Below, piece by piece: positions 829 to 62,768 of a DNA stretch of 64,000 nucleotides. The notes under the pieces are model-generated. The model saw only the letters and a list, made by a program, of their open reading frames with translations. It did not search any database and was not told where the DNA came from. Numbering within the stretch: position 1 is the stretch's first letter; each line of letters opens with the position of its first letter. The stretch comes from an uncultured Bacilli bacterium (GTDB taxonomy: Bacteria > Bacillota_I > Bacilli_A > RF39 > UBA660): contig CAKOHH010000001.1 of NCBI GenBank assembly GCA_934085675.1, positions 108,562-172,561 on the forward strand, read 5' to 3'. Made by a program: the position numbers and the translations under genes.

Positions 829-904
829 GTCTCCATAGCTCAGTTGGTAGAGCAACTGACTCTTAATCAGTGGGTCCACGGTTCGAGCCCGTGTGGGGAC
901 ACCA
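829..904 (+). tRNA. tRNA-Lys (anticodon CUU)
   Basis: Cloverleaf folded by hand: acceptor GTCTCCA/TGGGGAC, D arm AGCTCAGTTGGTAGAGC, anticodon stem ACTGA/TCAGT with loop CTCTTAA (CTT), T arm GGTTCGAGCCC, discriminator A plus encoded CCA. Confidence 0.85.
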
Positions 905-917
905 TTATGTGTTTTTT

Positions 918-940
918 AAAAGCCTTTAAAGAGGCTTTTT
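918..940 (+). terminator. Perfect 8-bp hairpin (AAAAGCCT-ttaaag-AGGCTTTT) between the two tRNA genes
   Basis: Inverted repeat seen directly; followed by a T-rich stretch. Confidence 0.4.
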
Positions 941-947
941 AAATTAT

Positions 948-1023
948 TACCCTGTCGCCAAGTGGTAAGGCAATGGGCTCTGACCCCATCATTTCGCCGG
1001 TTCGAATCCAGCCAGGGTAGCCA
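948..1023 (+). tRNA. tRNA-Gln (anticodon CUG)
   Basis: Acceptor TACCCTG/CAGGGTA, D arm GCCAAGTGGTAAGGC, anticodon stem ATGGG/CCCAT with loop CTCTGAC, T loop GGTTCGAATCC, then GCCA. Closely resembles Bacillus tRNA-Gln. Confidence 0.75.
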
Positions 1024-18099: not shown

Positions 18100-18960
18100 T
18101 TAAGACGGTTGCTTCAATTTTTCGATTTCTTTTTCAGTCAAGCCTGTCACTTTAGAAATATAATTGATATCGTTTGTTTCCTTTAATAAGTTTCTGGCAA
18201 CAATATCAATTCCTTTACTCATACCGATACTGATTCCTTGACTTTTACCAATATCAATTCCTTCTTCACGCCCATAATCACGAGCCTTTTTAAACATACT
18301 TCTTTCTTCATTCATTACTTCATCGCTTAAAAGGGCATTCATATACTCATCCATTGTCATAATTGTTCTCCATTTCTGTTTTAGTTTGTCTCGTTCTTCT
18401 TCACTATTTGCTTTTAAATATCTTAAAATATCTAAAAACTCTTCATCACTTATGCCTACATTATAATTAAGTTTATCTAGTAAATCAAGACGTATGTAAT
18501 AAATTTGAATATCATCTGTTAAAGGATAGCCTTGTTCTTCTAAGAAATATCTTTGCACTAATTTATCTTGTAAAACACCTTTTTTAACATGGTCTACTAA
18601 ATTAATTTGGATAAACTTCTTCATTTTATGATATGGCATGCTTTTTTTTAGTTGACTACTATAACCACGACAAAGATAAACATTTGACTTTCTTAAGTTT
18701 TCTTCATTGAATGTTTTATAAGCTTCTAAGTTTAAAATGACATTGTCTCCTAAAAAAGCAAAAACATCGGCCCTGATATTTTTTTCTTTATAAGTTGCTT
18801 TTTTAAATGGATATTCATGACTTTTAATCTCAATTTGTTTTTCTAAGAAACCTTTAGGTAATCTTAAAACATTTTCTGAGATAACTTCAAGTGGTCGGGT
18901 GTATTCTTCATTTCCTAAGATATTTTTCACCCAGTAGTCTTCCATTAAATCAATTTTCAT
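18100..18960 (-). CDS. Rpn/YhgA-like PD-(D/E)XK recombination-promoting nuclease / putative transposase (copy 1)
   Basis: 286 aa. D...E.K nuclease motif (IRADVFAFL...ILNLEAYK). C-terminal Gly-periodic helix region EEGIDIGKSQGISIGMSKGIDIVARNLL...GLTEKEIEKL, typical of the Rpn family. A near-identical copy lies at 21866-22735. Confidence 0.5.
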   Translation of the reverse strand: MKIDLMEDYWVKNILGNEEYTRPLEVISENVLRLPKGFLEKQIEIKSHEYPFKKATYKEKNIRADVFAFLGDNVILNLEAYKTFNEENLRKSNVYLCRGYSSQLKKSMPYHKMKKFIQINLVDHVKKGVLQDKLVQRYFLEEQGYPLTDDIQIYYIRLDLLDKLNYNVGISDEEFLDILRYLKANSEEERDKLKQKWRTIMTMDEYMNALLSDEVMNEERSMFKKARDYGREEGIDIGKSQGISIGMSKGIDIVARNLLKETNDINYISKVTGLTEKEIEKLKQPS

Positions 18961-19054
18961 GATTTCTTTCTCCTTTCTAAGAAGATAAATAAATTACCTT
19001 CTACTTATATATTCAAAAAAAATCCTTGATTTCCTTTTTTTTAGTGAAAAAAAA

Positions 19055-19089
19055 TTGCAATTTCTTGCAATCTTGACATTTATTTGACA
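19055..19089 (-). promoter_or_regulatory. Direct-repeat motifs TTGCAA-N4-TTGCAA and TTGACA-N5-TTGACA in the rpn-like gene's upstream region
   Basis: Seen directly. Repeated in all three cassette copies (19055-19089, 21011-21045, 22833-22867). A8/T8/A8 homopolymers sit just next to them (19015-19054). Confidence 0.4.
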
Positions 19090-20457
19090 CTAATTAACAA
19101 TATAAGGATCTGTCATAGTGCCGGTTCCTGTAATTGTAACGCCAGACTTTAAATTAATAACCGGACGGCATGCCAGATTTCCACCTGAATATGTATCGTC
19201 AATCGCATAAAAACCAGCATTTTGAGCAGAAAAAATTTTAACCTGTGGGCTTTGAAAATAAGCATCATAATAGCCAGATGGTGTCATTGTCCAAAACTCG
19301 TTTCCAGCAACTAAATAATCATTTATATTTTTTTTTGCATTATTATATTTACCATTTACAATTCCACCAGCATGACCAGCAAACATTACTTCATCAATTG
19401 TAATTAATCCAACCGGATATGTTAAAACTTTATTACCTAAAGAAGAGGAAGAAACAGTATAATAATCACTTGCATTCTCACATACAAGTGTTGGCTTACT
19501 TGCCTCAACTCTTACATATGCTTTATAATAAGTTATCGTTTGTCCTATTCCTGTGTTTGAATCATTTGATAATGAACTGCGATCACCACAAAACCCAACA
19601 TTGATATCTAATTTTGATGCGTAACTCGAAAGTTTATCCGTATAGAACTTATCTACATTTGTTTTAATTTTTGATGATGTTCCCGTACCATGAGTTTCTC
19701 CTTCAGTATACATATAGCCTACATACATATTGTTATTAGAACTTGGATTAAATTGACTGGTGCCATATTGTCTATCTGTTGATGATTCGCCATTAGCATG
19801 GGCACTTGTACCATCATAAATCATTCTAATAGAACCATTGCTGTTTATTCTTATGATTCTCCAATAGTAACCTGCAAACTTGACATAATTGTTTTCTACT
19901 GAACCTCGATAATAATAAGTAGGCTTGCCATCATTGTCTGTTGTTTCATAAATTCCTTTTTCGTGGGATTCACATGAAGAATCATCACAGGCTGACTTTG
20001 TAAAATCTGGAGTATAACTATTAACTTCAATGTTTCCTAAAGCCGTTTTTAGTGTTTTAGCTGTTTTATTAAAATATAAAGTACATTTGGTTCTAGTATT
20101 ATCTGTTGCACTATAATTATAATAATCACCAATGAATTTCCAACCAGCATTATCCCAAGTTGGAACAACGCCATTATTACAGTTTGATTTTGTTTCATCT
20201 AAAGTGTAACCTGTATTTTGAAGAGGCATATTTCTTGATATAACCCCATCTATATAATAAGCAAAATAAATGTCTCCTGGATCTTCTACTGTGCCATTTA
20301 TGACATCAAAAGCTTTCTTTTCTTCATATAAAGCATAGGATTTATAAAATAAATAACTGCTTATGGAAAGTAAAAGAAATCCTATGACTAATATGACATA
20401 AGATTTTCTTTTATAATTATTGTCTTTATATCTTTTTAATTCCATTATCTTCACCAT
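19090..20457 (-). CDS. Secreted variable surface/exoprotein, family A1, paralog 1
   Basis: Sec signal with KSYA-LYEEK cleavage site. Conserved core YYYRGSVENNYVKFAGYYWRIIRINSNGSIRMIYDG. C-terminal tail RPVINLKSGVTITGTGTMTDPYIVN. Paralogous to 7 other ORFs in the window. Confidence 0.7.
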   Translation of the reverse strand: MVKIMELKRYKDNNYKRKSYVILVIGFLLLSISSYLFYKSYALYEEKKAFDVINGTVEDPGDIYFAYYIDGVISRNMPLQNTGYTLDETKSNCNNGVVPTWDNAGWKFIGDYYNYSATDNTRTKCTLYFNKTAKTLKTALGNIEVNSYTPDFTKSACDDSSCESHEKGIYETTDNDGKPTYYYRGSVENNYVKFAGYYWRIIRINSNGSIRMIYDGTSAHANGESSTDRQYGTSQFNPSSNNNMYVGYMYTEGETHGTGTSSKIKTNVDKFYTDKLSSYASKLDINVGFCGDRSSLSNDSNTGIGQTITYYKAYVRVEASKPTLVCENASDYYTVSSSSLGNKVLTYPVGLITIDEVMFAGHAGGIVNGKYNNAKKNINDYLVAGNEFWTMTPSGYYDAYFQSPQVKIFSAQNAGFYAIDDTYSGGNLACRPVINLKSGVTITGTGTMTDPYIVN

Positions 20458-20505
20458 AGTTTCCTATGATGATTATAACAGATACCCCCCCCCCGACTGT
20501 CAATA
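20458..20505 (-). promoter_or_regulatory. Promoter with a G10 homopolymer in the -35/-10 spacer (candidate phase-variation switch)
   Basis: Minus strand reads TTGACAgtc-G10-tatcTGtTATAAT-catcatAGGAAActATG. The poly-C run on the + strand spans 20485-20494. Confidence 0.65.
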
Positions 20506-20544
20506 GGTTTTTATTTTATTTGGTTGCTATAATTGTTTTATTTC

Positions 20545-20909
20545 TTTTTTGGAAAGCACCGAAATCATAGCAATGTAATCTAAATCATCGGTTGTTTTTA
20601 ATAGTCGTTCGATAACTGCCTTTTTCTCTGCATCAATTCCTTCTTCACGGCCATAATCATGAGCCTTTTTAAGCTGACTACTATAACCACGACAAAGATA
20701 AACATTTGACTTTCTTAAATTTTCTTCATTGAATGTTTTATAAGCTTCTAAGTTTAAAATGATATCTTTTCTTAAAAAAGCAAAAACATCGGCCCTGATA
20801 TTCTTTTCTTTATAAGTTGCTTTTTTAAATGGATATTCATGACTTATAATCTCAATTTGTTTCCTAAGATATTTTTCACCCAGTAGTCTTCCATTAAATC
20901 AATTTTCAT
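20545..20909 (-). pseudogene. Rpn-like nuclease gene remnant (two internal deletions, altered 3' end)
   Basis: Start codon and the first ~20 codons are identical to the intact copies. About 360 bp and about 80 bp are missing. Both deletion junctions sit at short direct repeats (gcctttttaa / ttctaaga). Confidence 0.7.
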
Positions 20910-21250
20910 GATTTTTGTCTCCTTCCTAAGAAGATAAATAAATTACCTTCTACTTATATATTCAAAAAAAATCAGCAATTTCCTTTTTTTTAATGAAAAA
21001 AGATTGCAATTTCTTGCAATCTTGACACTTATTTGACATCAATTAACAATATAAGGATTTATTATAATGACTATTCCAATAAAACTAAAGTCTGAGTAAA
21101 TATTGACGCAGTCCTTAAAAACTATTTAAGCCATAACCATCATAAGTTCTTAAATCATATTTTAAAGTATAGGAAAAATTAAAGTCAAATCAACTTAACT
21201 TGATGAAGTCATTATTCAATAGGATATGCCTGCTAAATAAATACTATTTT

Positions 21251-21865: not shown

Positions 21866-22735
21866 CTATACTAACACAATTTTCTCTAATTCTTCTTTAG
21901 AAAGTCCTGTGGCAGCAGAAATCTTTTCTAAAGAAAAGTTCATTTTTAAAAGTTCTTTGGATATTAGGATACGTTCCTCTTTTTTGCCAACATCAATTCC
22001 TTTACTCATGCCGATACTGATTCCTTTATCAATTCCTTCTTCACGACCATAATCACGAGCCTTTTTAAACATACTTCTTTCTTCATTCATTACTTCATCG
22101 CTTAAAAGGGCATTCATATACTCATCCATTGTCATAATTGTTCTCCATTTCCATTTTAGTTTGTCTCGTTCTTCTTCACTATTTGCTTTTAAATATCTTA
22201 AAATATCTAAAAACTCTTCATCACTTATGCCTACATTATAATTAAGTTTATCTAGTAAATCAAGACGTATGTAATAAATTTGAATATCATCTGTTAAAGG
22301 ATAGCCTTGTTCTTCTAAGAAATATCTTTGCACTAATTTATCTTGTAAAACACCTTTTTTTACATGGTCTACTAAATTAATTTGGATAAACTTCTTCATC
22401 TTATGATATGGCATGCTCTTTTTTAGTTGACTACTATAGCCACGACAAAGATAAACATTTGATTTTCTTAAATTTTCTTCATTAAATGTTTTATAAGCTT
22501 CTAAGTTTAAAATGATATCTTTTCTTAAAAAAGCAAAAACATCGGCCCTGATATTCTTTTCTTTATAAGTTGCTTTTTTGAATGGATATTCATGACTTTT
22601 AATCTCAATTTGTTTTTCTAAGAAACCTTTAGGTAATCTTAAAACATTTTCTGAGATAACTTCAAGTGGTCGGGTGTATTCTTCATTTCCTAAGATATTT
22701 TTCACCCAGTAGTCTTCCATTAAATCAATTTTCAT
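21866..22735 (-). CDS. Rpn/YhgA-like PD-(D/E)XK recombination-promoting nuclease (copy 2)
   Basis: More than 90% identical to 18100-18960 over most of its length. The C-terminal Gly-repeat region is diverged. Confidence 0.5.
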   Translation of the reverse strand: MKIDLMEDYWVKNILGNEEYTRPLEVISENVLRLPKGFLEKQIEIKSHEYPFKKATYKEKNIRADVFAFLRKDIILNLEAYKTFNEENLRKSNVYLCRGYSSQLKKSMPYHKMKKFIQINLVDHVKKGVLQDKLVQRYFLEEQGYPLTDDIQIYYIRLDLLDKLNYNVGISDEEFLDILRYLKANSEEERDKLKWKWRTIMTMDEYMNALLSDEVMNEERSMFKKARDYGREEGIDKGISIGMSKGIDVGKKEERILISKELLKMNFSLEKISAATGLSKEELEKIVLV

Positions 22736-22864
22736 GATTTCTTTCTCCTTTCTAAGAAGATAAATAAATTACCTTCTACTTATATATTCAAAAAAAATCC
22801 TTGATTTCCTTTTTTTTAGTGAAAAAAAATTGCAATTTCTTGCAATCTTGACATTTATTTGACA

Positions 22865-24229
22865 CTAATTAACAATATAAGGATCTGTCATAGTGCCGGT
22901 TCCTGTAATTGTAACGCCAGACTTTAAATTAATAACCGGACGGAGACCATTGTTATAAACTGTAGCTCCATCGCCAAAAGCACCTAAACCACCGACGCCG
23001 ATTACACTAGTAAACCAGCTAGTTCCGCAGAACGGATAATAACCTCCTGCTGGTGTCATTGTCCAGTAAGAAATTCCCATTATCAAATAACTATCTGCAT
23101 TTTCCTTTTGATGACTATATTCACCATCAAAGACACCACCGGCATGACCTGCATACATAGCTTCATCAGCGGTTATTAAGCCAATCGGGTAGTTTAATTT
23201 TTTATTACCGCTTGCCGCACTAGAAACCGTATAATAATCTTTTATATTTTCACAGGTAAGTGTTGGTGTACTTTCTTCTACCCTTATGTATCCTTTATTA
23301 TAAGTAGTTACCGTGCCGGTTCCGACACCACTTTGCTGAGTTAGGCTAGAACGGTCTCCACAAAAACCTGCATTCGTATCTAATTTTGAAACGTAACTTG
23401 AAAGTTTATCTGTATAGAACTTGTCCACATTTATTTTAACGGCTGAAGCTGTACTCGTGCCATAGGCTTCTCCGGATGTGTACATATAGCCGACATACAT
23501 ATTGTTATCTGATGATGTATTAAATGGACTGGTACCGTATCGTCTATCTTCAGAAGCCTCTCCGTTTTTATGAGCTACTGTCCCATCATAAAGCATTCTA
23601 ATTGAACCATTGCTGTTTATTCTTATGATTCGCCAGTAAAAGCCTGCAAACTTAACATAATTATTTTCGACAGAACCACGATAGTAATAAGTTGGCTTTC
23701 CATCATTGTCTGTTGTTTCAAAAATGCCTTTTTCATGGGATTCACATAAAGAATCATCACAGGCTGACTTTGTAAAATCTGGAGTATAACTATTCACTTC
23801 AATATTTCCTAAAGCCGTTTTTACTGTTTTTGCTGTTTTATTAAAATATAAAGTACATTTAGTTCTTGTATTTGTGGTTGCACTATAATTTTTGTAATTC
23901 ATTTTGGCTTCCCAAGAAGCATTATTCCAAGTTGGAACAACACCATTATTACAATTTGATTTTGTTTCATCTAAAGTATAACCCGTATTTTGAGCTGGCA
24001 TATTTCTTGATATAACACCATCTATATAATAAGCAAAATAGATATCTCCTGGATCTTCTACTGTTCCATTTATGACATCAAAATCTTTCTTTTCTTCATA
24101 TAAAGCATAGGATTTATAAAATAAATAACTATTTACAGAAAGTAAAAGAAATCCTATGACTAATATGACATAAGATTTTCTTTTATAATTATTGTCCTTA
24201 TATTTTTTTAATTCCATTATCTTCACCAT
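22865..24229 (-). CDS. Secreted variable surface/exoprotein, family A1, paralog 2
   Basis: N-terminal ~330 aa nearly identical to paralog 1. The C-terminal third has diverged. The C-terminal tail is the same. Confidence 0.7.
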   Translation of the reverse strand: MVKIMELKKYKDNNYKRKSYVILVIGFLLLSVNSYLFYKSYALYEEKKDFDVINGTVEDPGDIYFAYYIDGVISRNMPAQNTGYTLDETKSNCNNGVVPTWNNASWEAKMNYKNYSATTNTRTKCTLYFNKTAKTVKTALGNIEVNSYTPDFTKSACDDSLCESHEKGIFETTDNDGKPTYYYRGSVENNYVKFAGFYWRIIRINSNGSIRMLYDGTVAHKNGEASEDRRYGTSPFNTSSDNNMYVGYMYTSGEAYGTSTASAVKINVDKFYTDKLSSYVSKLDTNAGFCGDRSSLTQQSGVGTGTVTTYNKGYIRVEESTPTLTCENIKDYYTVSSAASGNKKLNYPIGLITADEAMYAGHAGGVFDGEYSHQKENADSYLIMGISYWTMTPAGGYYPFCGTSWFTSVIGVGGLGAFGDGATVYNNGLRPVINLKSGVTITGTGTMTDPYIVN

Positions 24230-24280
24230 AGTTTCCTATGATAATTATAACAGATACCCCCCCCCCCGACTGTCAAGAGG
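24230..24280 (-). promoter_or_regulatory. Promoter with a G11 homopolymer in the spacer (candidate phase-variation switch)
   Basis: Same TTGACAgtc-Gn-tatctgTTATAAT architecture. The C run on the + strand spans 24257-24267, which is 11 nt. Confidence 0.65.
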
Positions 24281-24291
24281 CTTTTGGGAGT

Positions 24292-25641
24292 TTAATTCAC
24301 TATATATGGATCTGTTTTGGTTCCTGTTCCTGTGATTGTTACATCTGAGCAAATGTTAACAACAGGTTTTATACCTACAGTAGCAGTACATGTCCAGTCA
24401 TTTATTTGACCAACACCCCCATTAAGAAAGAGAGACGTAGACCAATACCCATCACCAATGATAAAAGTTCCAGAAACTGGAGTTATAGTCCAAAAATTTG
24501 TTCCTGATGTATAAATATTTAAACTTTTAGGTTGTATATTTAAAACACCTTCAAACATTCCTCCTCCAGAGCCTGATAGCATTAACTCATCTACCGTGAT
24601 TAAGCCAATATTATACTTTAAACTTCTATTTCCAATGTTTGCTGATGAAATTGTATAATAATCATCATTCATACATGACAAATCAGGATTACTTTGAACA
24701 ACACGCTTATATCCTTCAAAAATGGTGTCATTATTATTAATTCCAGCATTATTGTTATTCGATGTTAAGATAATTCTACGATCCCCACAGAAACCGACAT
24801 TTGTATCTAATTTTGATGCGTAACTCGAAAGTTTATCCGTATAGAACTTATCTACATTTGTTTTAATTTTTGATGATGTTCCCGTACCATGAGTTTCTCC
24901 TTCAGTATACATATAGCCTACATACATATTGTTATTAGAACTTGGATTAAATTGACTGGTGCCATATTGTCTATCTGTCGATGCCTCCCCATTAGCATGA
25001 GCACTTGTCCCATCATAAATCATTCTTATTGAGCCATTACTGTTTATCCTTATGATTCGCCAATAAAAGCCTGCAAACTTAACATAATTGTTTTCTACTG
25101 AGCCACGATAGTAATAGGTTGGATTGCCATCATAGTCTGTTGTTTCAAAAATGCCTTTTTCATGGGATTCACATAAAGAATCATCACAGGCTGACTTTGT
25201 AAAATCTGGAGTATAACTATTCACTTCAATATTTCCTAAAGCCGTTTTTACTGTTTTAGCTGTTTTATTAAAATACAAAGTGCATTTGGTTCTAGTATTT
25301 GTGGTCGCACTATAATTATGATAATCACCAATAAATTTCCAACCAGCATTATCCCAAGTTGGAACAACGCCATTATTACAGTTTGATTTTGTCTCATCTA
25401 AAGTATAACCTGTATTTTGAAGAGGCATATTTCTTGATATAACGCCATCTATATAATAAGCAAAATAAATATCCCCTGGATCTTCTACGGTTCCATTTAT
25501 GACATCAAAATCTTTCTTTTCTTCATACAAGGCATAACTCGGGGATAAAACTAGATATCCTGCTACTACCCCTAATAAAAAAAATAAGAAAAAAATTAGT
25601 ATCTTCTTATAATTTATTTGTTTAAACTTTTTCAAAGACAT
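24292..25641 (-). CDS. Secreted variable surface/exoprotein, family A1, paralog 3
   Basis: Different signal peptide (MSLKKFKQINYKKILIFFLFFLLGVVAG). Same core as paralogs 1/2. Divergent C-terminal third. Tail KPVVNICSDVTITGTGTKTDPYIVN. Confidence 0.7.
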   Translation of the reverse strand: MSLKKFKQINYKKILIFFLFFLLGVVAGYLVLSPSYALYEEKKDFDVINGTVEDPGDIYFAYYIDGVISRNMPLQNTGYTLDETKSNCNNGVVPTWDNAGWKFIGDYHNYSATTNTRTKCTLYFNKTAKTVKTALGNIEVNSYTPDFTKSACDDSLCESHEKGIFETTDYDGNPTYYYRGSVENNYVKFAGFYWRIIRINSNGSIRMIYDGTSAHANGEASTDRQYGTSQFNPSSNNNMYVGYMYTEGETHGTGTSSKIKTNVDKFYTDKLSSYASKLDTNVGFCGDRRIILTSNNNNAGINNNDTIFEGYKRVVQSNPDLSCMNDDYYTISSANIGNRSLKYNIGLITVDELMLSGSGGGMFEGVLNIQPKSLNIYTSGTNFWTITPVSGTFIIGDGYWSTSLFLNGGVGQINDWTCTATVGIKPVVNICSDVTITGTGTKTDPYIVN

Positions 25642-25710
25642 AAAAAAATCACCACAGTTTCCCTATGATGATTATAACAGATACCCCCCCCCCGACTGTC
25701 AAGAGTATCT
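25642..25710 (-). promoter_or_regulatory. Promoter with a G10 homopolymer in the spacer (candidate phase-variation switch)
   Basis: TTGACAgtc-G10-tatctgTTATAAT. The C run on the + strand spans 25684-25693. Confidence 0.65.
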
Positions 25711-25727: not shown

Positions 25728-26288
25728 TTACGCTCTACTTGAATATTTACCATCGCTAGTTGAGATAATAATTCTTTCGCCTTGGCTAATGAATAATGGC
25801 ACTTTAACAGTATAGCCTGTTTCAATTTTAGCATCTTTCATAGCATTGTTAGTTGTATTACCTTTAACAGCTGGTTCTGTTTCAACAACTTCGAATTCGA
25901 TTTTTTCAGGTAAAGTAACACCTAATAATTCGCCTTCATAATAATCAAGTTTGATTTCGATTCCTTCTTTTAAGAAACGTTTTTCATTTTCTAATTTACT
26001 TCCTGGAACTTCTACTTGATCATAAGTTTCTGTGTTCATGAACACATAGTTATCTCCATTAGCATATAAAAATTGCATTGGATTATGTTCCACACGAGCT
26101 CTTTCAATTTTAATATTAGTATTGTAAGAGTTTTCAACAACAGCACCTGTTCTTAAGTTCTTAGTTTTCATACGAACAAAAGCACTGCCTTTTCCAGGTT
26201 TAACATGTTGGAATTCAATAATTTGACAAAGATTACCGTCTAAAATAATTGTCATTCCATTTTTAATATCGTTGATATTAATATTCAT
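25728..26288 (-). CDS. efp: Elongation factor P
   Basis: 186 aa; KPGKG loop motif (HVKPGKGSAFVRMK). Confidence 0.9.
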   Translation of the reverse strand: MNININDIKNGMTIILDGNLCQIIEFQHVKPGKGSAFVRMKTKNLRTGAVVENSYNTNIKIERARVEHNPMQFLYANGDNYVFMNTETYDQVEVPGSKLENEKRFLKEGIEIKLDYYEGELLGVTLPEKIEFEVVETEPAVKGNTTNNAMKDAKIETGYTVKVPLFISQGERIIISTSDGKYSSRA

Positions 26289-54956: not shown

Positions 54957-56585
54957 TTAATCCCCTGATAACTCGTACGGACTTTCTTTAGAGCCATTGC
55001 CATTAACAATTGCAACAGAGGATTTTAAATAAACGGATGGGCGTATCAGAACAGAATTTGCTGCACTAAGGCCATCATCAATGTTACATCCGACATTACC
55101 ACCATTACCTACGTCAAACACATTAGTAGTATCTGATGTATCAGTTCTAGAAGAAATAGTCCATTGAAAATTACTTGAAACATAAAACCAATCATTATTT
55201 TTACAATCGCTATAAGAACTATCATTCCAATTAAGCAATTCTTTGGTTAAACAGCTACTTCGATTATTTTTGCTTCCCCCACTGGTTGCAAATCCATAAT
55301 CACTTGGATACATTAAGCCAACTTTCCCTTGCCATGTACTAGTTCTTGTCACAGTATCATTGCAAAAAACACCTGACGTACATATTTTTCCTGTATTATC
55401 GCTTCGCTCATAACTATAAAAATGAATAGTTAATCCATTGCTCGCTGTTGTCCAACCGTTTGTACCTTGACTTCCCGTGTTCCATAAAGTGTTTCCTATT
55501 AATTTTTTTAAATTTGGTTTTAAGCCACTACTTGTAAAATCACAGGCTTTTGTGGCATTATCACTATAAGAATAGCAGTTTCCAGAACTATTATTGTAGT
55601 ATAATGAACCACCAACACTTTCACTTTCATAGCCTGGATTTAAAAGTTTCATTAAATCAGCCTGGCTCCATTCATTGACACCCCAACCACTATTTACCGA
55701 TGAATCTGAAGTATCCCATGAATAATTTCCTATTGATTCATTTCTTATTAATTTTAGTCTTGATTCTTTTTTTCCTGTTCCATCATCTATATTATTCATA
55801 ACACCTATAATACGCCAAAACTCATTATCTATTTTGACATAGTTACAAGGATTTGCTCCAACATATCTTAAATTGTTATCACTTGTTCCATCATAGGCTA
55901 AGGTATAAGTACAACTATCACTTGTTTTATCCGGAACAGTATAGACGTCTGTTGAAGAAGTATCTGCTTTGGCTGCTAAATTAGAAACCACACTTGTGGC
56001 ATATGGTATTTCTGTTTCATATTTTGCTGTTACAATAACTTTTGAATTAAAAGTTGTATTTTGAATATTTAATGTTTCTGTTGTTACATTTTCATCTAAC
56101 CATAATCTTAAATCATAAGTTTTACTTTCTTTAGAGTCTAAATAACCTGTTGTTAAATTAAAAGCAGATTTAGCGTTATTAAGTGTTTTTGTTACAGTTT
56201 CATAATTTGATAATAAATCTAATTTTAATTCATTTTCAACATTACCTTCTTTTTTAGAAAACATAACTTTAATAGCATTATTATTTGTTAAAGTTGAAGT
56301 ATTTAATACTTCTAAATTAACAGCGTATGAAGCAGAAGAATCACAGTTATTTGTTATGGTAAATTCATATGGAGTTAACTTTTTTCCATCTTTATCATAC
56401 AAAGGATAACTCTTTTGTAAACTTATATTATCTTTTTCAGTAAAACTAATATTAAAACAAGTAGAAGCAATATCATTTTCACTTGTTTGAGTTAAATTTA
56501 AAGTCCATATAGCATAAGATATACCAATTACACTTAATATTAGGACAATACTAATCATTATTATTAATACTTTTTTCTTTTTCAT
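54957..56585 (-). CDS. Secreted variable surface/exoprotein, family B, paralog 2
   Basis: Signal peptide MKKKKVLIIMISIVLILSVIGISYA-IWTLNL. Same core as 38996-40588. Tail RPSVYLKSSVAIVNGNGSKESPYELSGD. Confidence 0.7.
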   Translation of the reverse strand: MKKKKVLIIMISIVLILSVIGISYAIWTLNLTQTSENDIASTCFNISFTEKDNISLQKSYPLYDKDGKKLTPYEFTITNNCDSSASYAVNLEVLNTSTLTNNNAIKVMFSKKEGNVENELKLDLLSNYETVTKTLNNAKSAFNLTTGYLDSKESKTYDLRLWLDENVTTETLNIQNTTFNSKVIVTAKYETEIPYATSVVSNLAAKADTSSTDVYTVPDKTSDSCTYTLAYDGTSDNNLRYVGANPCNYVKIDNEFWRIIGVMNNIDDGTGKKESRLKLIRNESIGNYSWDTSDSSVNSGWGVNEWSQADLMKLLNPGYESESVGGSLYYNNSSGNCYSYSDNATKACDFTSSGLKPNLKKLIGNTLWNTGSQGTNGWTTASNGLTIHFYSYERSDNTGKICTSGVFCNDTVTRTSTWQGKVGLMYPSDYGFATSGGSKNNRSSCLTKELLNWNDSSYSDCKNNDWFYVSSNFQWTISSRTDTSDTTNVFDVGNGGNVGCNIDDGLSAANSVLIRPSVYLKSSVAIVNGNGSKESPYELSGD

Positions 56586-56617
56586 TTTACTATCCTTTCA
56601 TCTAATAAAAAACAAAA

Positions 56618-58597
56618 CTAATTGGTTACAATCTCGTAAGGACTAGAAGATGTTCCTATTCCTCCGCTTATTTTGGCATCTCCTTTGATATTTATAACAG
56701 GACGAACACCATAGCCGCCGGTCACCCAGTCGCTGTTAGGAGAGCCTGAGCTGCCCAAATAGAACTCACCTACCGCCGCATCCGAGATATAGAAACTCCT
56801 CGGAGACAAAGTCCAATAAGTTGACGTACTATAAGTATAAGCAGATTTATTAATATAACCATTGGCATACCCTGAAAGCATTAATTCATCGACTGTAATT
56901 AAGCCAATCGGATAAGTTAAGGCTTTATTTCCTTTAGTATTTGTACTTAAGGTAAATAAATCGTTTATTTGAACGCATTTTAAAGTTGGCTGTTTTGTAT
57001 AAAAATATCTACTATAAGGTCCATAGTTAGTATTAGACCCTGTTGTTGAATATCCATTTCCCGAATCTAGACTTCTATCATTACAGAAACCGGCATCAGC
57101 GATGACTGATTCATTGCTTGTTCCTAAAATATGGGTTTTATACCAATTATCTAATACTTTTTTGATATTGCTATCGTTTTCATTGGCATTTGTTTTTTCA
57201 TAACTTGTATTTAAAGTACTGCCAGACATGTATCCTACATAAGCTGGGTTATCTCTTTTACTATTAAAGGAAGCTGATTTTATATTTAATCCTGAACCAC
57301 TGGCATTGGCTGTTGCTCCCGCATATAAAAGTCTGACACTGCCATCACCATTGATACGAATAATTTGCCAGTAAGCATCAGCATATTTTACATAGTTGTT
57401 ATTTACTGAACCACGATAGTAATAACTTATACCATCAGCATCGGCCATTTGATAAAGTCCTTTATCTGATTTATCACTTTCTCTTTCTGTTTGGTTCAGT
57501 AAATAACCTTTTAAATTATATCTTCTCATTTTGAAAGAAGTTCCTCCTGAACCTGTTGCTGTTCCATCCGTAACACTAGCACTGGTGATTTCATAAATAT
57601 TTGCACAACCTGAGGTATTTTTCCATATTGATATAACATCAGCAGAACTTGTGCGATATCCAGCACCACAGAAATAATACTTAGTATTTCCACCATATGT
57701 TAAAGTAGTTGGATCTACTTGCTGAACATTTGTAATGGTATATGTTCCTGTCTCAGAATTAAAGGTATAACTAGAACCAATGGGAAGTAAAACGGCTGAG
57801 GCAGACAAGTTTTTAAATCTTGCATCTGTATCTTTTTGAGCAACTAAATCTGGATGAGGCATTGTTGATGATGGACTACTTAGACTTGTGGCTTTATTTT
57901 CATTCCAAATAAGAATAGGAGCAGTCCTACTAAAATCAACTGTTTGTTTAGCCGCTATTTTTTGTTTAGATATTTCAGGCGTTGTTTGATATTCGTTAGC
58001 AAGAATAACGTCCGCTAGGGTTGTATAGCCTTGCTCTACTGGGCTATAGTTACTTACTGATGCTGTTACAACTACTTTTGATTTAAAGTTTTTGTTCATA
58101 GCGTCTGTATCTTCTGGCGTAACATCTTCACTCATCCATAATCTTAAGTTATAATCAACACTGTCACCTGAACCTAAAGAACCTTTGGCAAGTATTTTTG
58201 ATGTTACAGAACCATTTATTGTTGTTTTAGCATCTTCTAATTCACTTAGTTTAATAACGCTTTCATTATTTATCATAGAACTAATATATTTTATTGGTAA
58301 CGTATTGTTTTCTAATATTTCTAAATTAACAGTGTAACTGGCAAATAAATCACAAGTATTTGTTATCGTAAAACTATAAGGCGTTAACTTTTTGCCTTCT
58401 TCATTTGTTATAGGGTAAGCATTAACTAAATTAATATTATTTTTTTCATTTGTTAACGATAAACTAAAACAACTTCCTGCTATTTTATTAAAACCTTTTT
58501 GAGACAAATTTAAAGTCCATATAGCATAAGAAATACCAATTATACTTAATATTAGAACAATACTTATCACTATTATTAATACTTTTTTCTTTTTCAT
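56618..58597 (-). CDS. Secreted variable surface/exoprotein, family A2, paralog 1
   Basis: Has the N-module of family B (KLTPYSFTITNTCDLFASYTVNLEIL) and the core of family A (YYYRGSVNNNYVKYADAYWQIIRINGDGSVRLLYAG). Tail RPVINIKGDAKISGGIGTSSSPYEIVTN. Confidence 0.7.
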   Translation of the reverse strand: MKKKKVLIIVISIVLILSIIGISYAIWTLNLSQKGFNKIAGSCFSLSLTNEKNNINLVNAYPITNEEGKKLTPYSFTITNTCDLFASYTVNLEILENNTLPIKYISSMINNESVIKLSELEDAKTTINGSVTSKILAKGSLGSGDSVDYNLRLWMSEDVTPEDTDAMNKNFKSKVVVTASVSNYSPVEQGYTTLADVILANEYQTTPEISKQKIAAKQTVDFSRTAPILIWNENKATSLSSPSSTMPHPDLVAQKDTDARFKNLSASAVLLPIGSSYTFNSETGTYTITNVQQVDPTTLTYGGNTKYYFCGAGYRTSSADVISIWKNTSGCANIYEITSASVTDGTATGSGGTSFKMRRYNLKGYLLNQTERESDKSDKGLYQMADADGISYYYRGSVNNNYVKYADAYWQIIRINGDGSVRLLYAGATANASGSGLNIKSASFNSKRDNPAYVGYMSGSTLNTSYEKTNANENDSNIKKVLDNWYKTHILGTSNESVIADAGFCNDRSLDSGNGYSTTGSNTNYGPYSRYFYTKQPTLKCVQINDLFTLSTNTKGNKALTYPIGLITVDELMLSGYANGYINKSAYTYSTSTYWTLSPRSFYISDAAVGEFYLGSSGSPNSDWVTGGYGVRPVINIKGDAKISGGIGTSSSPYEIVTN

Positions 58598-58630
58598 TTT
58601 TACTATCCTTTCATCTAATAAAAAATAAAA

Positions 58631-60646
58631 CTAATTGGTTACAATCTCATAAGGACTAGAAGATGTTCCTATTCCTCCACTTATTTTGGCATCTCCTTTG
58701 ATATTTATAACAGGACGAACACCACAGCCACCGTCCACCCAGCCATTGAAGTAAGGATAGCCTGCACTATTCAAACTGAACTCTCGTACCACTACATTAA
58801 AATAACTTGGAGATATAGTCCAATAGTTAGACGTACTATAAGTATAAGTTGACTTGTTAATATAACCATCTGCATAGCCTGAAAGCATTAATTCATCGAC
58901 TGTAATTAAGCCAATCGAATAAGTTAAGGCTTTATTTCCTTTAGTACTTGCCCTTAAGGTAAATAAATCATTTGTTTGAGAGCATTTTAAAGTTGGCTGT
59001 TTTGTTTGAAAATATCTTCTCCGAGGTCCATAGATGATGCTAGATTCTGTTGTAGAATAACCATTTCCAAAAGATAAACTTCTATCGTTACAGAAACCAG
59101 CATCAGCGATGACTGATTCGTTATTTGTGCCGAAAATATTGGTTTTATACCAATTATCTAATTCTTTTTTGATATTACTGTCGTTTTCATTGGCTGTTGT
59201 TTTTTCGTAACTTGTATTTAAAGTACTACCATACATGTATCCTACATAGGCTGGGTTATCTCTTTTACTATTAAAAGCAGCTGATTTTATATTTAAACCT
59301 GAACCACTTGCATTACCCGTTGTTCCCGCATATAAAAGTCTGACACTGCCATCACCATTCATACGCATAATACGCCAATAAGCACCTGCATATTTCACAT
59401 AATTGTTGCTTACCGAACCACGGTAGTAATAACTTATGCCATCATCATCTGCCATTTGATAAAGTCCTTTATCCGACTTGTCACTTTCTCTTTCTGTTTG
59501 ACTCATGCTGTATGCTTTTAAATTATATTTTCTGGTTTTGAAAGAAGTTCCACCTGAACCTGTGGCTGTTCCATCAGTATAGGTAGTACTGGTTATTTCA
59601 TAAATATTTGAACAGTCTGATGTAGTTTTATAAACACCAATAACATCATCTGAACTGATATTATAGCCTGAACTGCAGAAATAATACTTAGTATTCCCTC
59701 CATATGTTAAAGTGGTAGGATCTAATTGTTGCACATTTGTTATATCATATTTTCCTGTTTCAGGATTAAAAGTATAACTAGAACCGATAGGAAGTAAAAC
59801 TGATTCAGAAGTCAAGTTTTTAAACCTCGGATCTGTATCTTTTAAAGCTACTAAATCTGGATGAGGCATTATTACTGACTTACTACTTAAGTTAGAATCT
59901 TTGCTTTCGCTCCATATTAAAATTGGAGCTGTCTTACTAAAATCAACTGCTTGTTTGGCCGCTATTTTTTGCTTAGATATTTCGGGTGTTGTTTGATATT
60001 CGTTTGCTAGTATGGCATCTGCTAAGGTTGTATAGCCTTGTTCTGATGGGATGTAAGTACTTCTTTGGGCTCCTATGGTTACTTTTGATAAAAAGGTGGT
60101 ATTCATAGAGTCTGTATCATTTATGGTGACATCTTCATCCATCCATAGTCTAATGTTATAATCAGTACTGTCACCGGAACCAAGGGTTCCTTTAAAAAGA
60201 ACTTTGGAAGAAGAAGCATTATCTAAAGTTGTTTGGGTATCTTCTAAATCTTTTAATTTAGCGATGGCTTCATTATTTACCATTGCTTTAATATATTTAT
60301 AAGGCATCGTAGAATCATTTAAAATTTCTAGGTTAACTGTGTAACTTAAAAATAAATCACAAGTATTTGTTATCGTAAAACTATATGGTGTTAGTTTTTT
60401 TCCTTCGGCATCAGATATGGGATAAGCCTTGGTAAGATTAATATCATTTTTTTCATTAGTTAATGATAAATTCAAACAACTTGTTACAAGTTTTGAAGGA
60501 TTATGACTACTAAAAGTTAAAAGCCAATAAGCATAGGATACACCTATAACTGTCATCATTACTAATAGTATTACAATAATTAAAATAATCTTTTTCTTTT
60601 TGCTCATCTTCTTATACTCCCTTAAGACTAGTATGTAACATAACAT
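58631..60646 (-). CDS. Secreted variable surface/exoprotein, family A2, paralog 2
   Basis: About 75% identical to 56618-58597, with an identical C-terminal tail. The intergenic junction is duplicated. Confidence 0.7.
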   Translation of the reverse strand: MLCYILVLREYKKMSKKKKIILIIVILLVMMTVIGVSYAYWLLTFSSHNPSKLVTSCLNLSLTNEKNDINLTKAYPISDAEGKKLTPYSFTITNTCDLFLSYTVNLEILNDSTMPYKYIKAMVNNEAIAKLKDLEDTQTTLDNASSSKVLFKGTLGSGDSTDYNIRLWMDEDVTINDTDSMNTTFLSKVTIGAQRSTYIPSEQGYTTLADAILANEYQTTPEISKQKIAAKQAVDFSKTAPILIWSESKDSNLSSKSVIMPHPDLVALKDTDPRFKNLTSESVLLPIGSSYTFNPETGKYDITNVQQLDPTTLTYGGNTKYYFCSSGYNISSDDVIGVYKTTSDCSNIYEITSTTYTDGTATGSGGTSFKTRKYNLKAYSMSQTERESDKSDKGLYQMADDDGISYYYRGSVSNNYVKYAGAYWRIMRMNGDGSVRLLYAGTTGNASGSGLNIKSAAFNSKRDNPAYVGYMYGSTLNTSYEKTTANENDSNIKKELDNWYKTNIFGTNNESVIADAGFCNDRSLSFGNGYSTTESSIIYGPRRRYFQTKQPTLKCSQTNDLFTLRASTKGNKALTYSIGLITVDELMLSGYADGYINKSTYTYSTSNYWTISPSYFNVVVREFSLNSAGYPYFNGWVDGGCGVRPVINIKGDAKISGGIGTSSSPYEIVTN

Positions 60647-60781
60647 GTATTTTAAACTACCTTTATTATTACTTTATAAGTATAGCACTTTATCGCACAT
60701 TTTAGCAACTTGTTTTCAAATAAAAAAACGAGTAAGTCTCGCTTTTTTAGAATAAATATTTTATGTTGTATCTTTAAAAAA

Positions 60782-62768
60782 TTAGTTTGTTACAATCTCA
60801 AATGGACTAGAAGATGTTCCTATTCCGCCACTTATTTTAGCATCTCCTTTGATATTTATAACAGGACGAATACCATTGTCGTCGGTCACCAAGCGGTCGC
60901 TAGGATAGCCTGAGCTGCTCAAAGCGAACCCACTCGCCTCCGTATTCGAGCCACGGAACTTCCTCGGAGACAGAGTCCAATAAGACCTTGTACTGTATGT
61001 ATAAGCAGATTTATTAATATAACCATCAGCATATCCTGAAAGCATTAGTTCATCGACAGTAATTAGGCCAATCGGATAAGTTAAGGCTTTATTTCCTTTA
61101 GTACTTGTGCTTAAGGTAAATAAATCGTTTGTTTGAGCACACTTTAAAGTTGGTTGTTTAGTTTCATAATATCTATAATGTGACCCGTAGTATGTAGAAG
61201 AACCTGTTGTAGAATATCCATTTCCTGAAGACAAACTTCTATCATTACAGAAACCGGCATCAGCGATGACTGATTCATTGCTTGTTTCTAAAATATTGGT
61301 TTTATACCAATTGTCTAATTCTTTTTTGATATTGCTGTTGTTTTCATTGGCTGTTGTTTTTTCATAACTTGTATTCAAGGTACTACCATACATATAACCG
61401 TTGTAGGCTGGATTATCTTCTTTAACATTAAAGGTTTCCGATTTTATTCTTAATCCTGAACCACTGGCATTGGCTGTTGTTCCCGCATATAGAAGTCTGA
61501 CACTGCCATCACCATTGATACGAATAATTCGCCAGTAAGCACCAGCATATTTTACATAGTTGTTATTCACTGAACCACGATAGTAATAACTTATACCATC
61601 ATCATCTTCACTTTTGTATAGTCCTTTATCCGATTTGTCGCTTTCTCTTTCTGACTGAGTCATACGATAACCTTTTAAATTATATGTTCTGGTTTTGAAA
61701 GAAGTTCCGCCTGAACCAGTTGCTGTTCCATCTTCAAAACTGGCACTGGTGATTTCGTAAATACTTGAACATCCTGAGGTATCTCCCCATATAGATATAA
61801 CATCAGCAGAACTTGTATTATATCCCGCACTACAGAAATAATACTTCGTAGTCCCACCATATGTTAAAGTGGTTGGATCTACTTGTTGAACATTTGTGAT
61901 ATCATATTTTCCTGTTTCAGAATTAAAAGTATAACTAGAGCCAATTGGCAGTAAAGGTGATTCAGCATTTAACTTTTCAAATCTCGCATCTGTATCTTTT
62001 AAGGCAACTAAATCGGGATGAGGCATCGTTGCAGTTTTAGTACCTAGGTTAGTGTCTTTATATTCACTCCATGTTAAAATTGGAGCCGATTTACTAAAAT
62101 CTACGGTTTGTTTGGTGGCGATTTTTTGTTTAGATATTTCAGGAGTTGTTTGATATTCGTTGGCTAGTATGGCATCGGCAATGGTTGTATAGCCTTGTTC
62201 TACTGGACTATAATTACTTCTTTGGGCTCCTATGGTTACCTTAGATAAAAAGGTGGTATTCATAGAGTCTGTATCATTTACGGTGATATCTTCATCCATC
62301 CATAGTCTAATGTTGTAATCAGTACTGTCGCCTGAACCAAGAGTTCCTTTAAAAAGAACTTTGGAAGAAGAGGCATTATCTAAAGTTGTTGGGGTATCTT
62401 CTAAATCTTTTAATTTAGTAATGGCTTCATTATTTACCATAGACTTAATATATTTATAAGGCATCGTGGAATCATTTAAAATTTCTAGGTTAACTGTATA
62501 ACTTAAAAATAAATCACAAGTATTTGTTATTGTAAAACTATAGGGAGTTAACTTTTTTTCCTTCTTCATCAGATATAGGATAGGCTTTGGTAAGATTAAT
62601 ATCATTTTTTTCATTTGTTAATGATAAACTCAAACAACTTGTGACAAGTTTTGAGGGATTATGACTACTAAAAGTTAAAAGCCAATAAGCATAAGAAACA
62701 CCTATAGCCAACGACATCATTATTAATAGTATTATAATAATTAAAATAATCTTTGTCTTTTTGTGCAT
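60782..62768 (-). pseudogene. Family A2 paralog 3, frameshifted (ORFs 62538-62768 and 60782-62614)
   Basis: The reading frame is broken at an A7 run (plus-strand T run 62555-62561). The intact paralogs have A6 plus G at this position (gga aaa aag tta ac). The upstream region is homologous to 60647-60781. Confidence 0.65.

Follow-up and report, generated by a model that had tools for sequence, protein, structure and literature searches.

Three paralogous genes in the chromosome of an uncultured gut Bacilli bacterium are each preceded by a consensus sigma-A-type promoter that carries an uninterrupted run of guanines between its hexamers, and the length of this run differs between otherwise identical strains. 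From these sequence comparisons, we consider it fairly probable that the three promoters are phase-variable through slipped-strand mispairing, in the manner of porA, tp0126/tpr and vlp. The 64,000-nucleotide stretch of DNA that we analysed (hereafter the window) has a GC content of about 30%, and the occurrence of poly-G promoter modules in it is far beyond chance. Three C/G runs of at least 9 nt were found where 0.03 are expected per shuffle, and the window holds no other G or C run of at least 6 nt besides these three tracts. Likewise, perfect matches to TTGACA-N15-23-TATAAT number four against 0.44 expected; three of them are the poly-G modules and the fourth is an ordinary promoter upstream of clpB.

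The module upstream of paralog 3 illustrates the arrangement. The preliminary description had reported a C10 run on the plus strand at 25684-25693 with flanks shared by three such modules, and both statements hold: the run is G10 on the minus strand, which codes for every gene of the neighbourhood, and apart from tract length the three window modules are identical from the -35 through the -10. On the minus strand, the paralog-3 module (25671..25702) reads cTTGACA-GTC-GGGGGGGGGG-TATCTGT-TATAAT, preceded by ...aaaagatactc and followed after TATAAT by catcatagggaaactgtGGTGAtttttttATG. Its -35 hexamer TTGACA occupies 25697-25702 and its -10 hexamer TATAAT 25671-25676, giving a spacer of 20 bp. The -10 is of the extended type (TGnTATAAT, here TGtTATAAT, with the TG at 25678-25679); a Shine-Dalgarno (SD) sequence GGTGA lies at 25649-25653, and the gene starts 30 nt from the -10 with an ATG at 25641, 7 nt after the SD. 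The paralog-2 module (24244-24276, minus strand) begins 15 nt past the stop codon of paralog 3 and has G11 at 24257-24267 in a 21-bp spacer, and the paralog-1 module (20472-20503, minus strand) has G10 at 20485-20494 in a 20-bp spacer. The perfect hexamers, the TG extension and the SD are the same in all three copies, and the sole nearby difference is one base just 5' of the -35 (cctaTTGACA in paralog 1 versus cctcTTGACA). Each paralog is thus headed by a conserved cassette of about 60 nt composed of an A-rich stretch, TTGACA, the G tract, the extended -10 and a short SD leader, and in all three copies, as in the promoter-spacer class of repeats, a homopolymer lies between recognizable -35 and -10 hexamers. 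A GATAC/GTATC inverted repeat surrounds the -35 and tract of the paralog-3 copy; it is confined to the efp-adjacent orthologs and is not a general feature of the modules.

The window is chromosomal, with efp, spoIIP, clpB, a fragment of rpoC, tRNA genes (two at 829-1020, plus strand) and an L21 leader (Rfam RF00559; 36662-36735, minus strand). The upstream neighbour of paralog 3 is efp (25728..26288, minus strand), itself preceded by an ORF of about 1,500 aa whose position corresponds to that of a polC-like gene in the related locus L026. Read along the minus strand, the order is efp, G10 and paralog 3, G11 and paralog 2, a PDDEXK_2 (Rpn-like) gene, a GNAT gene, a decayed PDDEXK_2 gene, G10 and paralog 1, a PDDEXK_2 gene and spoIIP. 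The Rpn-like nuclease/transposase gene at 21866..22735 (minus strand) forms, together with the neighbouring paralog, a unit that is duplicated at 86.5% identity (21988-24285 versus 18201-20512), the second copy of the nuclease gene lying at 18100-18960; a decayed third copy is found between the two units at 20530-21077, with its nuclease remnant at about 20530-20909. In other strains, the interval between efp and spoIIP contains a single family gene, as in L026, or a second copy led by the module, as in L028 and L029. The locus is therefore a hotspot of paralog expansion, and the Rpn-like genes, which flank family genes at several loci, may drive this expansion. The homologues and identical proteins are encoded in human-gut metagenomes and in metagenome-assembled genomes (MAGs) labelled as uncultured Bacilli or Firmicutes, and one UniRef entry is assigned to Candidatus Ventrenecus. 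The host is apparently a spore-forming, Candidatus Ventrenecus-like lineage of uncultured gut Bacilli with sporulation genes; this lineage, known from metagenomes alone, is common in Hadza and other human gut metagenomes.

Paralog 3 (24292..25641) encodes 449 aa with a predicted N-terminal signal peptide ending in SPSYA before LYEEKK. Paralog 2 (22865..24229) encodes 454 aa from its first ATG, although the likely true start is the ATG at 24217 (MELK..), 5 nt after the SD GGTGA, and paralog 1 (19090..20457) encodes 455 aa from the first ATG, with a likely start at 20445; all three are on the minus strand. All three proteins have an N-terminus rich in lysine, a hydrophobic segment and an invariant SYA that would suit cleavage by signal peptidase, and we regard them as putatively secreted. 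Overall identity among them is 68-73%, and its distribution is uneven: it is 80-100% across alignment columns 51-250 (82-100% over most of them), whereas the C-terminal third (columns 301-450) falls to 37-62% before the last 20 or so residues are conserved again, the variable region spanning aa 290-425. The difference among paralogs on which the preliminary description relied is thus real; that they are antigenically distinct is an inference that goes a step further. Nucleotide identity in the conserved part is 77-95%, which indicates that the paralogs are not recent duplicates; nonetheless, their promoter cores are identical.

Sequence and profile searches of Pfam, NCBIfam and the PDB with paralogs 1-3 gave nothing significant, and AlphaFold2 models had a pLDDT of 44, too low to judge the fold, in both runs, one with a 65-sequence family alignment and the other with a 66-sequence alignment of three subfamilies. 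The family itself is very large, comprising 4,820 clusters at 50% identity (E <=0.001), and giant proteins contain up to 13 copies of its C-terminal domain of about 290 aa. The window contains a second tandem cluster (54957..62614, minus strand) of four larger, distant paralogs (542, 659, 671 and 610 aa), which have this C-terminal domain of about 290 aa in common at 36-38% identity and have no G tracts. In the fourth of these (gene 60782-62768), the reading frame is split by a +1 frameshift in a minus-strand A7 at 62553-62559 (GGAAAAAAAGTT), and A6 would restore the frame, as judged from GKKLTPYSF in the protein of the neighbouring paralog. Possible explanations are decay to a pseudogene, a sequencing error and a second slippage site, in this case translational. 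DUF6273 (PF19789) gave no match in paralogs 1-3 at the Pfam gathering threshold of 23.5 bits; the large window paralogs scored 18.4-19.6 bits, below that threshold, and two distant relatives scored 27-32 bits over the C-terminal part of the model only. DUF6273 has been described as a C-type-lectin-like binding domain, known from receptor-binding proteins of phages and from an IgA protease of the gut (PMC10743442, PMC12402451). We treat this link of the family to DUF6273 as a lead, not as a classification.

Some family members elsewhere lack the module, and the G tract is therefore not the only control of the family. At a recO-adjacent locus (L053 5563-5900 and L015 2622-3000), family-A genes stand 12 nt apart in operon-like arrays behind a divergent HTH_3 (XRE-type) gene; there is no G tract, and the intergenic region holds palindromic operators ATGACAT...ATGTCAT. 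P0001, the closest homologue of paralog 3 (92% identical), sits at this locus. The arrays would represent a second, regulator-based mode of control of the same family.

The evidence for instability of the tract comes from 43 copies of the module, in the window and in related gut metagenome contigs. They were gathered by scanning two collections, one of genomes and one of metagenomes, for the exact pattern and, by a second route that is independent of the module sequence, from contigs fetched because they encode particular family proteins. Tract length ranged from 9 to 13 nt with a mode of 10-11: 6 of the 43 copies had 9 nt (three of them interrupted, GGCGGGGGG), 21 had G10, 14 had G11, and G12 and G13 were found once each, so that 35 copies (81%) were G10 or G11. 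By contrast with this length variation, the core flanks TTGACAGTC and TATCTGTTATAAT were identical in 42 of the 43, the exception (L007) being one base off in each (TTGACACTC and TATCTGCTATAAT). The most informative case is the efp-adjacent ortholog: five contigs from five samples encode the same protein, P0017, and have no mismatch over 3.9 kb outside the tract, yet their tracts are G11, G11, G9, G11 and G12 (read from assembly consensus rather than from reads). At this position the tract is G10 in the window, G11 in another MAG and G9-12 elsewhere. Other ortholog groups behaved similarly, with lengths of 9, 9, 10, 9 and 10 next to rbfA (the first and fourth interrupted), of 10, 11, 11 and 10 in a first group adjacent to FtsX and of 11, 13 and 11 in a second; one group of three was G10 throughout. 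Such length polymorphism among otherwise identical sequences is the hypermutability that typifies promoter-spacer repeats, the feature by which a phase-variable promoter is recognized at the sequence level. The tract lengths are Illumina assembly consensus, and some differences of one nucleotide could be homopolymer sequencing or assembly errors, whereas differences of 2-3 nt between otherwise identical contigs (G9 versus G12) exceed typical consensus error and would be hard to ascribe to it. We are highly confident, from these alignments, that tract length mutates far faster than the surrounding DNA.

The tract is also kept pure. In 342 kb comprising the window and related loci, all G/C runs of at least 7 nt lie inside modules, and 40 of the 43 tracts are uninterrupted, though the proteins that they precede have diverged by up to 30%. 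An orphan module provides the counterpart: it lies just after thiI, some 170 nt away from the subfamily-B gene downstream, and a second promoter, TGTTATAAT, comes after it (L010 2483-2514, L014 13613-13643 and L053 20355-20385). One metagenome assembly has it in two contigs, with tracts of G10 and G9, and in a contig from another sample the tract has decayed to GTGGGGAGG. Pure tracts across diverged paralogs together with decay in the orphan copy point to selection for purity, and it can be said with high confidence, on these comparisons, that purity is upheld where the tract directly precedes a family gene. The interrupted form GGCGGGGGG recurs in two samples at the rbfA-adjacent locus (L012/L031 and L034), where, with its 19-bp spacer, it would amount to a 'locked' allele. 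Three contigs (L003, L013 and L036) end exactly in a module or tract; because the repeated module and the homopolymer break short-read assemblies, MAGs probably understate how many genes bear the module. Exact-protein look-ups returned no record for paralogs 3 and 1, and for paralog 2 a single 1.4-kb contig that starts inside the tract.

The geometry of the promoter is less straightforward. With tracts of G9 to G13, the -35/-10 spacing is 19-23 bp (n = 43) with a mode of 20-21 bp. A spacing of 16-18 bp was found in none of the 43 alleles, with a metagenome pattern that would have matched tracts down to G3, and the promoter-spacer class of repeats would be expected to have a common allele at this optimal, ON spacing. 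Two ordinary promoters of the window, that of the L21 leader (TTGACA-17-TAGAAT) and that of clpB (TTGACA-17-TATAAT), both have 17 bp. The claim that the paralogs have switchable promoters therefore stands in part: the tract lies in the spacer and is unstable in length, but no allele from G9 to G13 places the hexamers at 16-18 bp. Candidates for an alternative -35 at 16-18 bp from TATAAT (ACAGTC, CAGTCG and GACAGT) share 0-1 of 6 bases with TTGACA and were rejected, as was a long-spacer promoter of the MerR type, since the spacer shows no dyad symmetry.

Replication slippage adds and removes G bases in the tract, and because the tract lies between the hexamers, each slip shifts the -35/-10 spacing and the rotational phase by one bp. 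If the promoters are phase-variable, transcription of that paralog alone would then be raised or lowered, and the outcome would be a population mixed with respect to which C-terminally differing variants are made. As the observed spacings are all 19-23 bp, the common alleles probably correspond to low or OFF states, and rarer, shorter tracts (G7-8) would be ON, as in the tpr genes of Treponema pallidum. Alternatively, the promoter may fire from its extended -10 with the -35 dispensable, the tract acting as a graded rheostat, or the unusual helical geometry of a G run may shift the spacing optimum. The tight length distribution could reflect either stabilizing selection for a fixed length or a mutational equilibrium.

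The strongest competitor of phase variation is a fixed promoter architecture with no switch, in which the G run serves as a structural element of the spacer (for instance as a rigid, A-form-like segment, or as one part of a regulator site that also includes the conserved TTGACAGTC) needed at about 10-11 nt, and length differences are neutral slippage or sequencing error. The concentration of 35 of the 43 tracts at G10 or G11, the total lack of alleles at canonical spacing, the presence of an extended -10 and the recurrence of the interrupted, stabilized allele in two samples would all fit such an architecture. However, a run of ten guanines is the most slippage-prone filler conceivable for a spacer in a genome of 30% GC that has no other G/C run of at least 7 nt, its purity is kept across diverged paralogs and species and lost in the orphan copy, and the difference between G9 and G12 in contigs that are 100% identical is larger than typical consensus error. 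We therefore regard a fixed architecture as unlikely, and phase variation as the better account of the tract.

A further feature of the modules lies just downstream of the promoter. Every copy can fold a hairpin right after the -10 that overlaps its last bases and holds the SD in its 3' arm. In the paralog-3 leader (hairpin and U-run, 25642..25673, minus strand), the hairpin at 25647-25673 has an 11-bp stem and a 5-nt loop and is followed by a run of seven U at 25642-25648, the first two of which close the stem. It has a folding energy of -12.8 kcal/mol (z = -4.5), its stem is AU-rich with 3 GC pairs and UUUUU-A after it, and it reaches into the 3' end of the -10, with the SD GGTGA buried inside it. 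With its stem-loop and U-run, this leader has the form of an intrinsic (Rho-independent) terminator and was flagged as terminator-like by the terminator scan. The paralog-1/2 type, UCAUCAUAG-GAAA-CUAUGGUGA, has a 9-bp stem, a GNRA loop and no U-run (-11.8 kcal/mol, z = -5.5). The 9 distinct leader variants show single changes, of which 3 are compatible with pairing and 2 disrupt it, and covariation analysis found no compensatory pair.

The position of the hairpin suggests which RNAs would contain it. A sigma-A start would be expected 6-8 nt 3' of TATAAT, inside the 5' arm, so that RNAs from the module's own promoter would lack this arm and the hairpin would form only in read-through RNA; in folding calculations, RNAs from the predicted start site are unstructured. 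The terminator scan found no terminator belonging to efp, which ends 25 nt short of the -35, so that the paralog-3 leader hairpin is the first terminator-like structure met by a transcript leaving efp; nor did the scan find one between paralog 3 and paralog 2, which starts 62 nt after paralog 3. Read-through RNA folding the hairpin would be terminated (paralog-3 type) or would have its SD hidden (paralog-1/2 type), and each gene would then depend on its own promoter. It is thus plausible, from the predicted folds, that the leader hairpin is an insulator, acting as a terminator in the paralog-3 copy and by SD sequestration in the others, and that it would render the copies transcriptionally and translationally independent.

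The same structures could instead mean that the module works mainly through RNA, terminating or attenuating transcription of the upstream gene, with a pyrimidine-rich flank pairing with the G run, a second hairpin before the U-run and the hexamers incidental. Modules always start no more than 25 nt past the stop codon of the gene before them (efp, paralog 3 or thiI), folding of the entire region gives z = -3.4 to -4.9, and the leader of the paralog-3 type scores as an intrinsic terminator. Even so, it is very unlikely that TTGACA, TGnTATAAT and a well-placed SD would occur together incidentally, the upstream flank needed to pair with the G run is not conserved among copies, and the paralog-1/2-type hairpin has no U-run. 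We consider this explanation improbable as a replacement for a promoter; as an additional role, it is compatible with the promoter model and does not exclude it. That tract and variation are nothing but sequencing or assembly artefacts is extremely improbable, since, error-prone as homopolymers are and although several contigs break exactly at the tract (L003, L013 and L036), the tract is found at three sites of the window and in another 40 independent assemblies, made in different studies with different assemblers, each time inside the module and never shorter than 9 nt.

Returning to phase variation, the hairpin and the spacing may be joined in a more specific proposal, which we put forward tentatively, as it is rather doubtful. 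The module would be a self-insulating cassette, a 'promoter inside a terminator', whose output is set by its own G tract alone, and the switch would work around the non-canonical spacing of 20-21 bp, through an A-form-like G run or through initiation at the extended -10 modulated by a misplaced -35; it would then be a graded rheostat and not have a 17-bp ON state. The eight combinatorial expression states that the preliminary description had foreseen for three independent promoters would in any case be a simplification, because output may be graded and read-through from paralog 3 into paralog 2 is possible. In addition, related genomes bear the module in at least five copies, spread over several loci, and the number of possible states is therefore not 2^3.

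Among mucosal pathogens such as Neisseria, Haemophilus, Treponema and Mycoplasma, promoter switches based on slipped-strand mispairing are textbook knowledge. To our knowledge, such switches are barely documented in commensal gut Firmicutes, for which work on phase variation has centred on invertible promoters. Our literature search found no report on this protein family, on poly-G promoters in gut Firmicutes or on the biology of Ventrenecus. What is new here is the organism, a lineage of uncultured gut Bacilli, and the target gene family; the principle is already known, and the practical payoff outside the family is therefore modest. The over-long spacer and the hairpin overlapping the promoter are unusual details. 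If the promoters are indeed switches, a strategy of the pathogen type would operate in gut Bacilli over a very large, uncharacterized family of putative secreted proteins, and the signature TTGACAGTC-Gn-TATCTGTTATAAT would allow variation in expression state to be tracked directly in metagenomic reads. The locus also offers a natural test case for promoter behaviour at a spacing of 19-23 bp.

Among known systems, T. pallidum offers a close parallel in architecture. In tp0126, a poly-G tract between the -35 and the -10 controls expression, and in tprE/G/J/L tracts of 8 G or fewer permit transcription, with most cells carrying longer, non-permissive tracts of 9-10 (PMC7864442). As in tp0126 and tprE/G/J/F/I/L, the tract here is a promoter poly-G (about 7-12 nt in T. 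pallidum), the genes are paralogs (of envelope proteins in T. pallidum), and each paralog has its own tract; tract length varies within and between isolates of T. pallidum, and here variation was seen between samples. The systems differ in that T. pallidum is a spirochaete with outer-membrane porins, that the 17-bp optimum of tp0126 is absent among the alleles found here and that a promoter-overlapping leader hairpin is present here and not there; moreover, function was established by reporters in T. pallidum and is predicted from sequence here. In Neisseria meningitidis, transcription changes stepwise with the spacing imposed by a homopolymeric G/C tract that separates or adjoins the -35 and -10, a poly-G spacer in porA and poly-C in opc (PMC7864442). 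The porA alleles bracket the 16-18 bp optimum, unlike those described here, and porA is a single gene of a Gram-negative pathogen, whereas the modules serve a tandem paralog family.

Two further systems resemble the modules in other respects. In Bordetella pertussis fim2/fim3, a C/G tract of about 13-15 nt upstream of the -10 gives an effective spacing beyond the canonical range. A long C/G tract 5' of the -10 and an over-long spacing are thus shared with the modules; the fim tract separates the -10 from the site of the activator BvgA, and no activator site was identified here. In Mycoplasma hyorhinis, clustered vlp genes for variable surface proteins each have their own poly-A tract between the -35 and the -10, and their ON/OFF switching is independent and combinatorial, just the logic that the preliminary description had put forward for the present genes. 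Although the vlp tracts are poly-A, their products are lipoproteins with repeat regions and their ON tract length has been defined experimentally, this system is the closest to ours in logic, as each member of a clustered family has a tract of its own and the host belongs to a low-GC, Bacilli/Mollicutes-related lineage.
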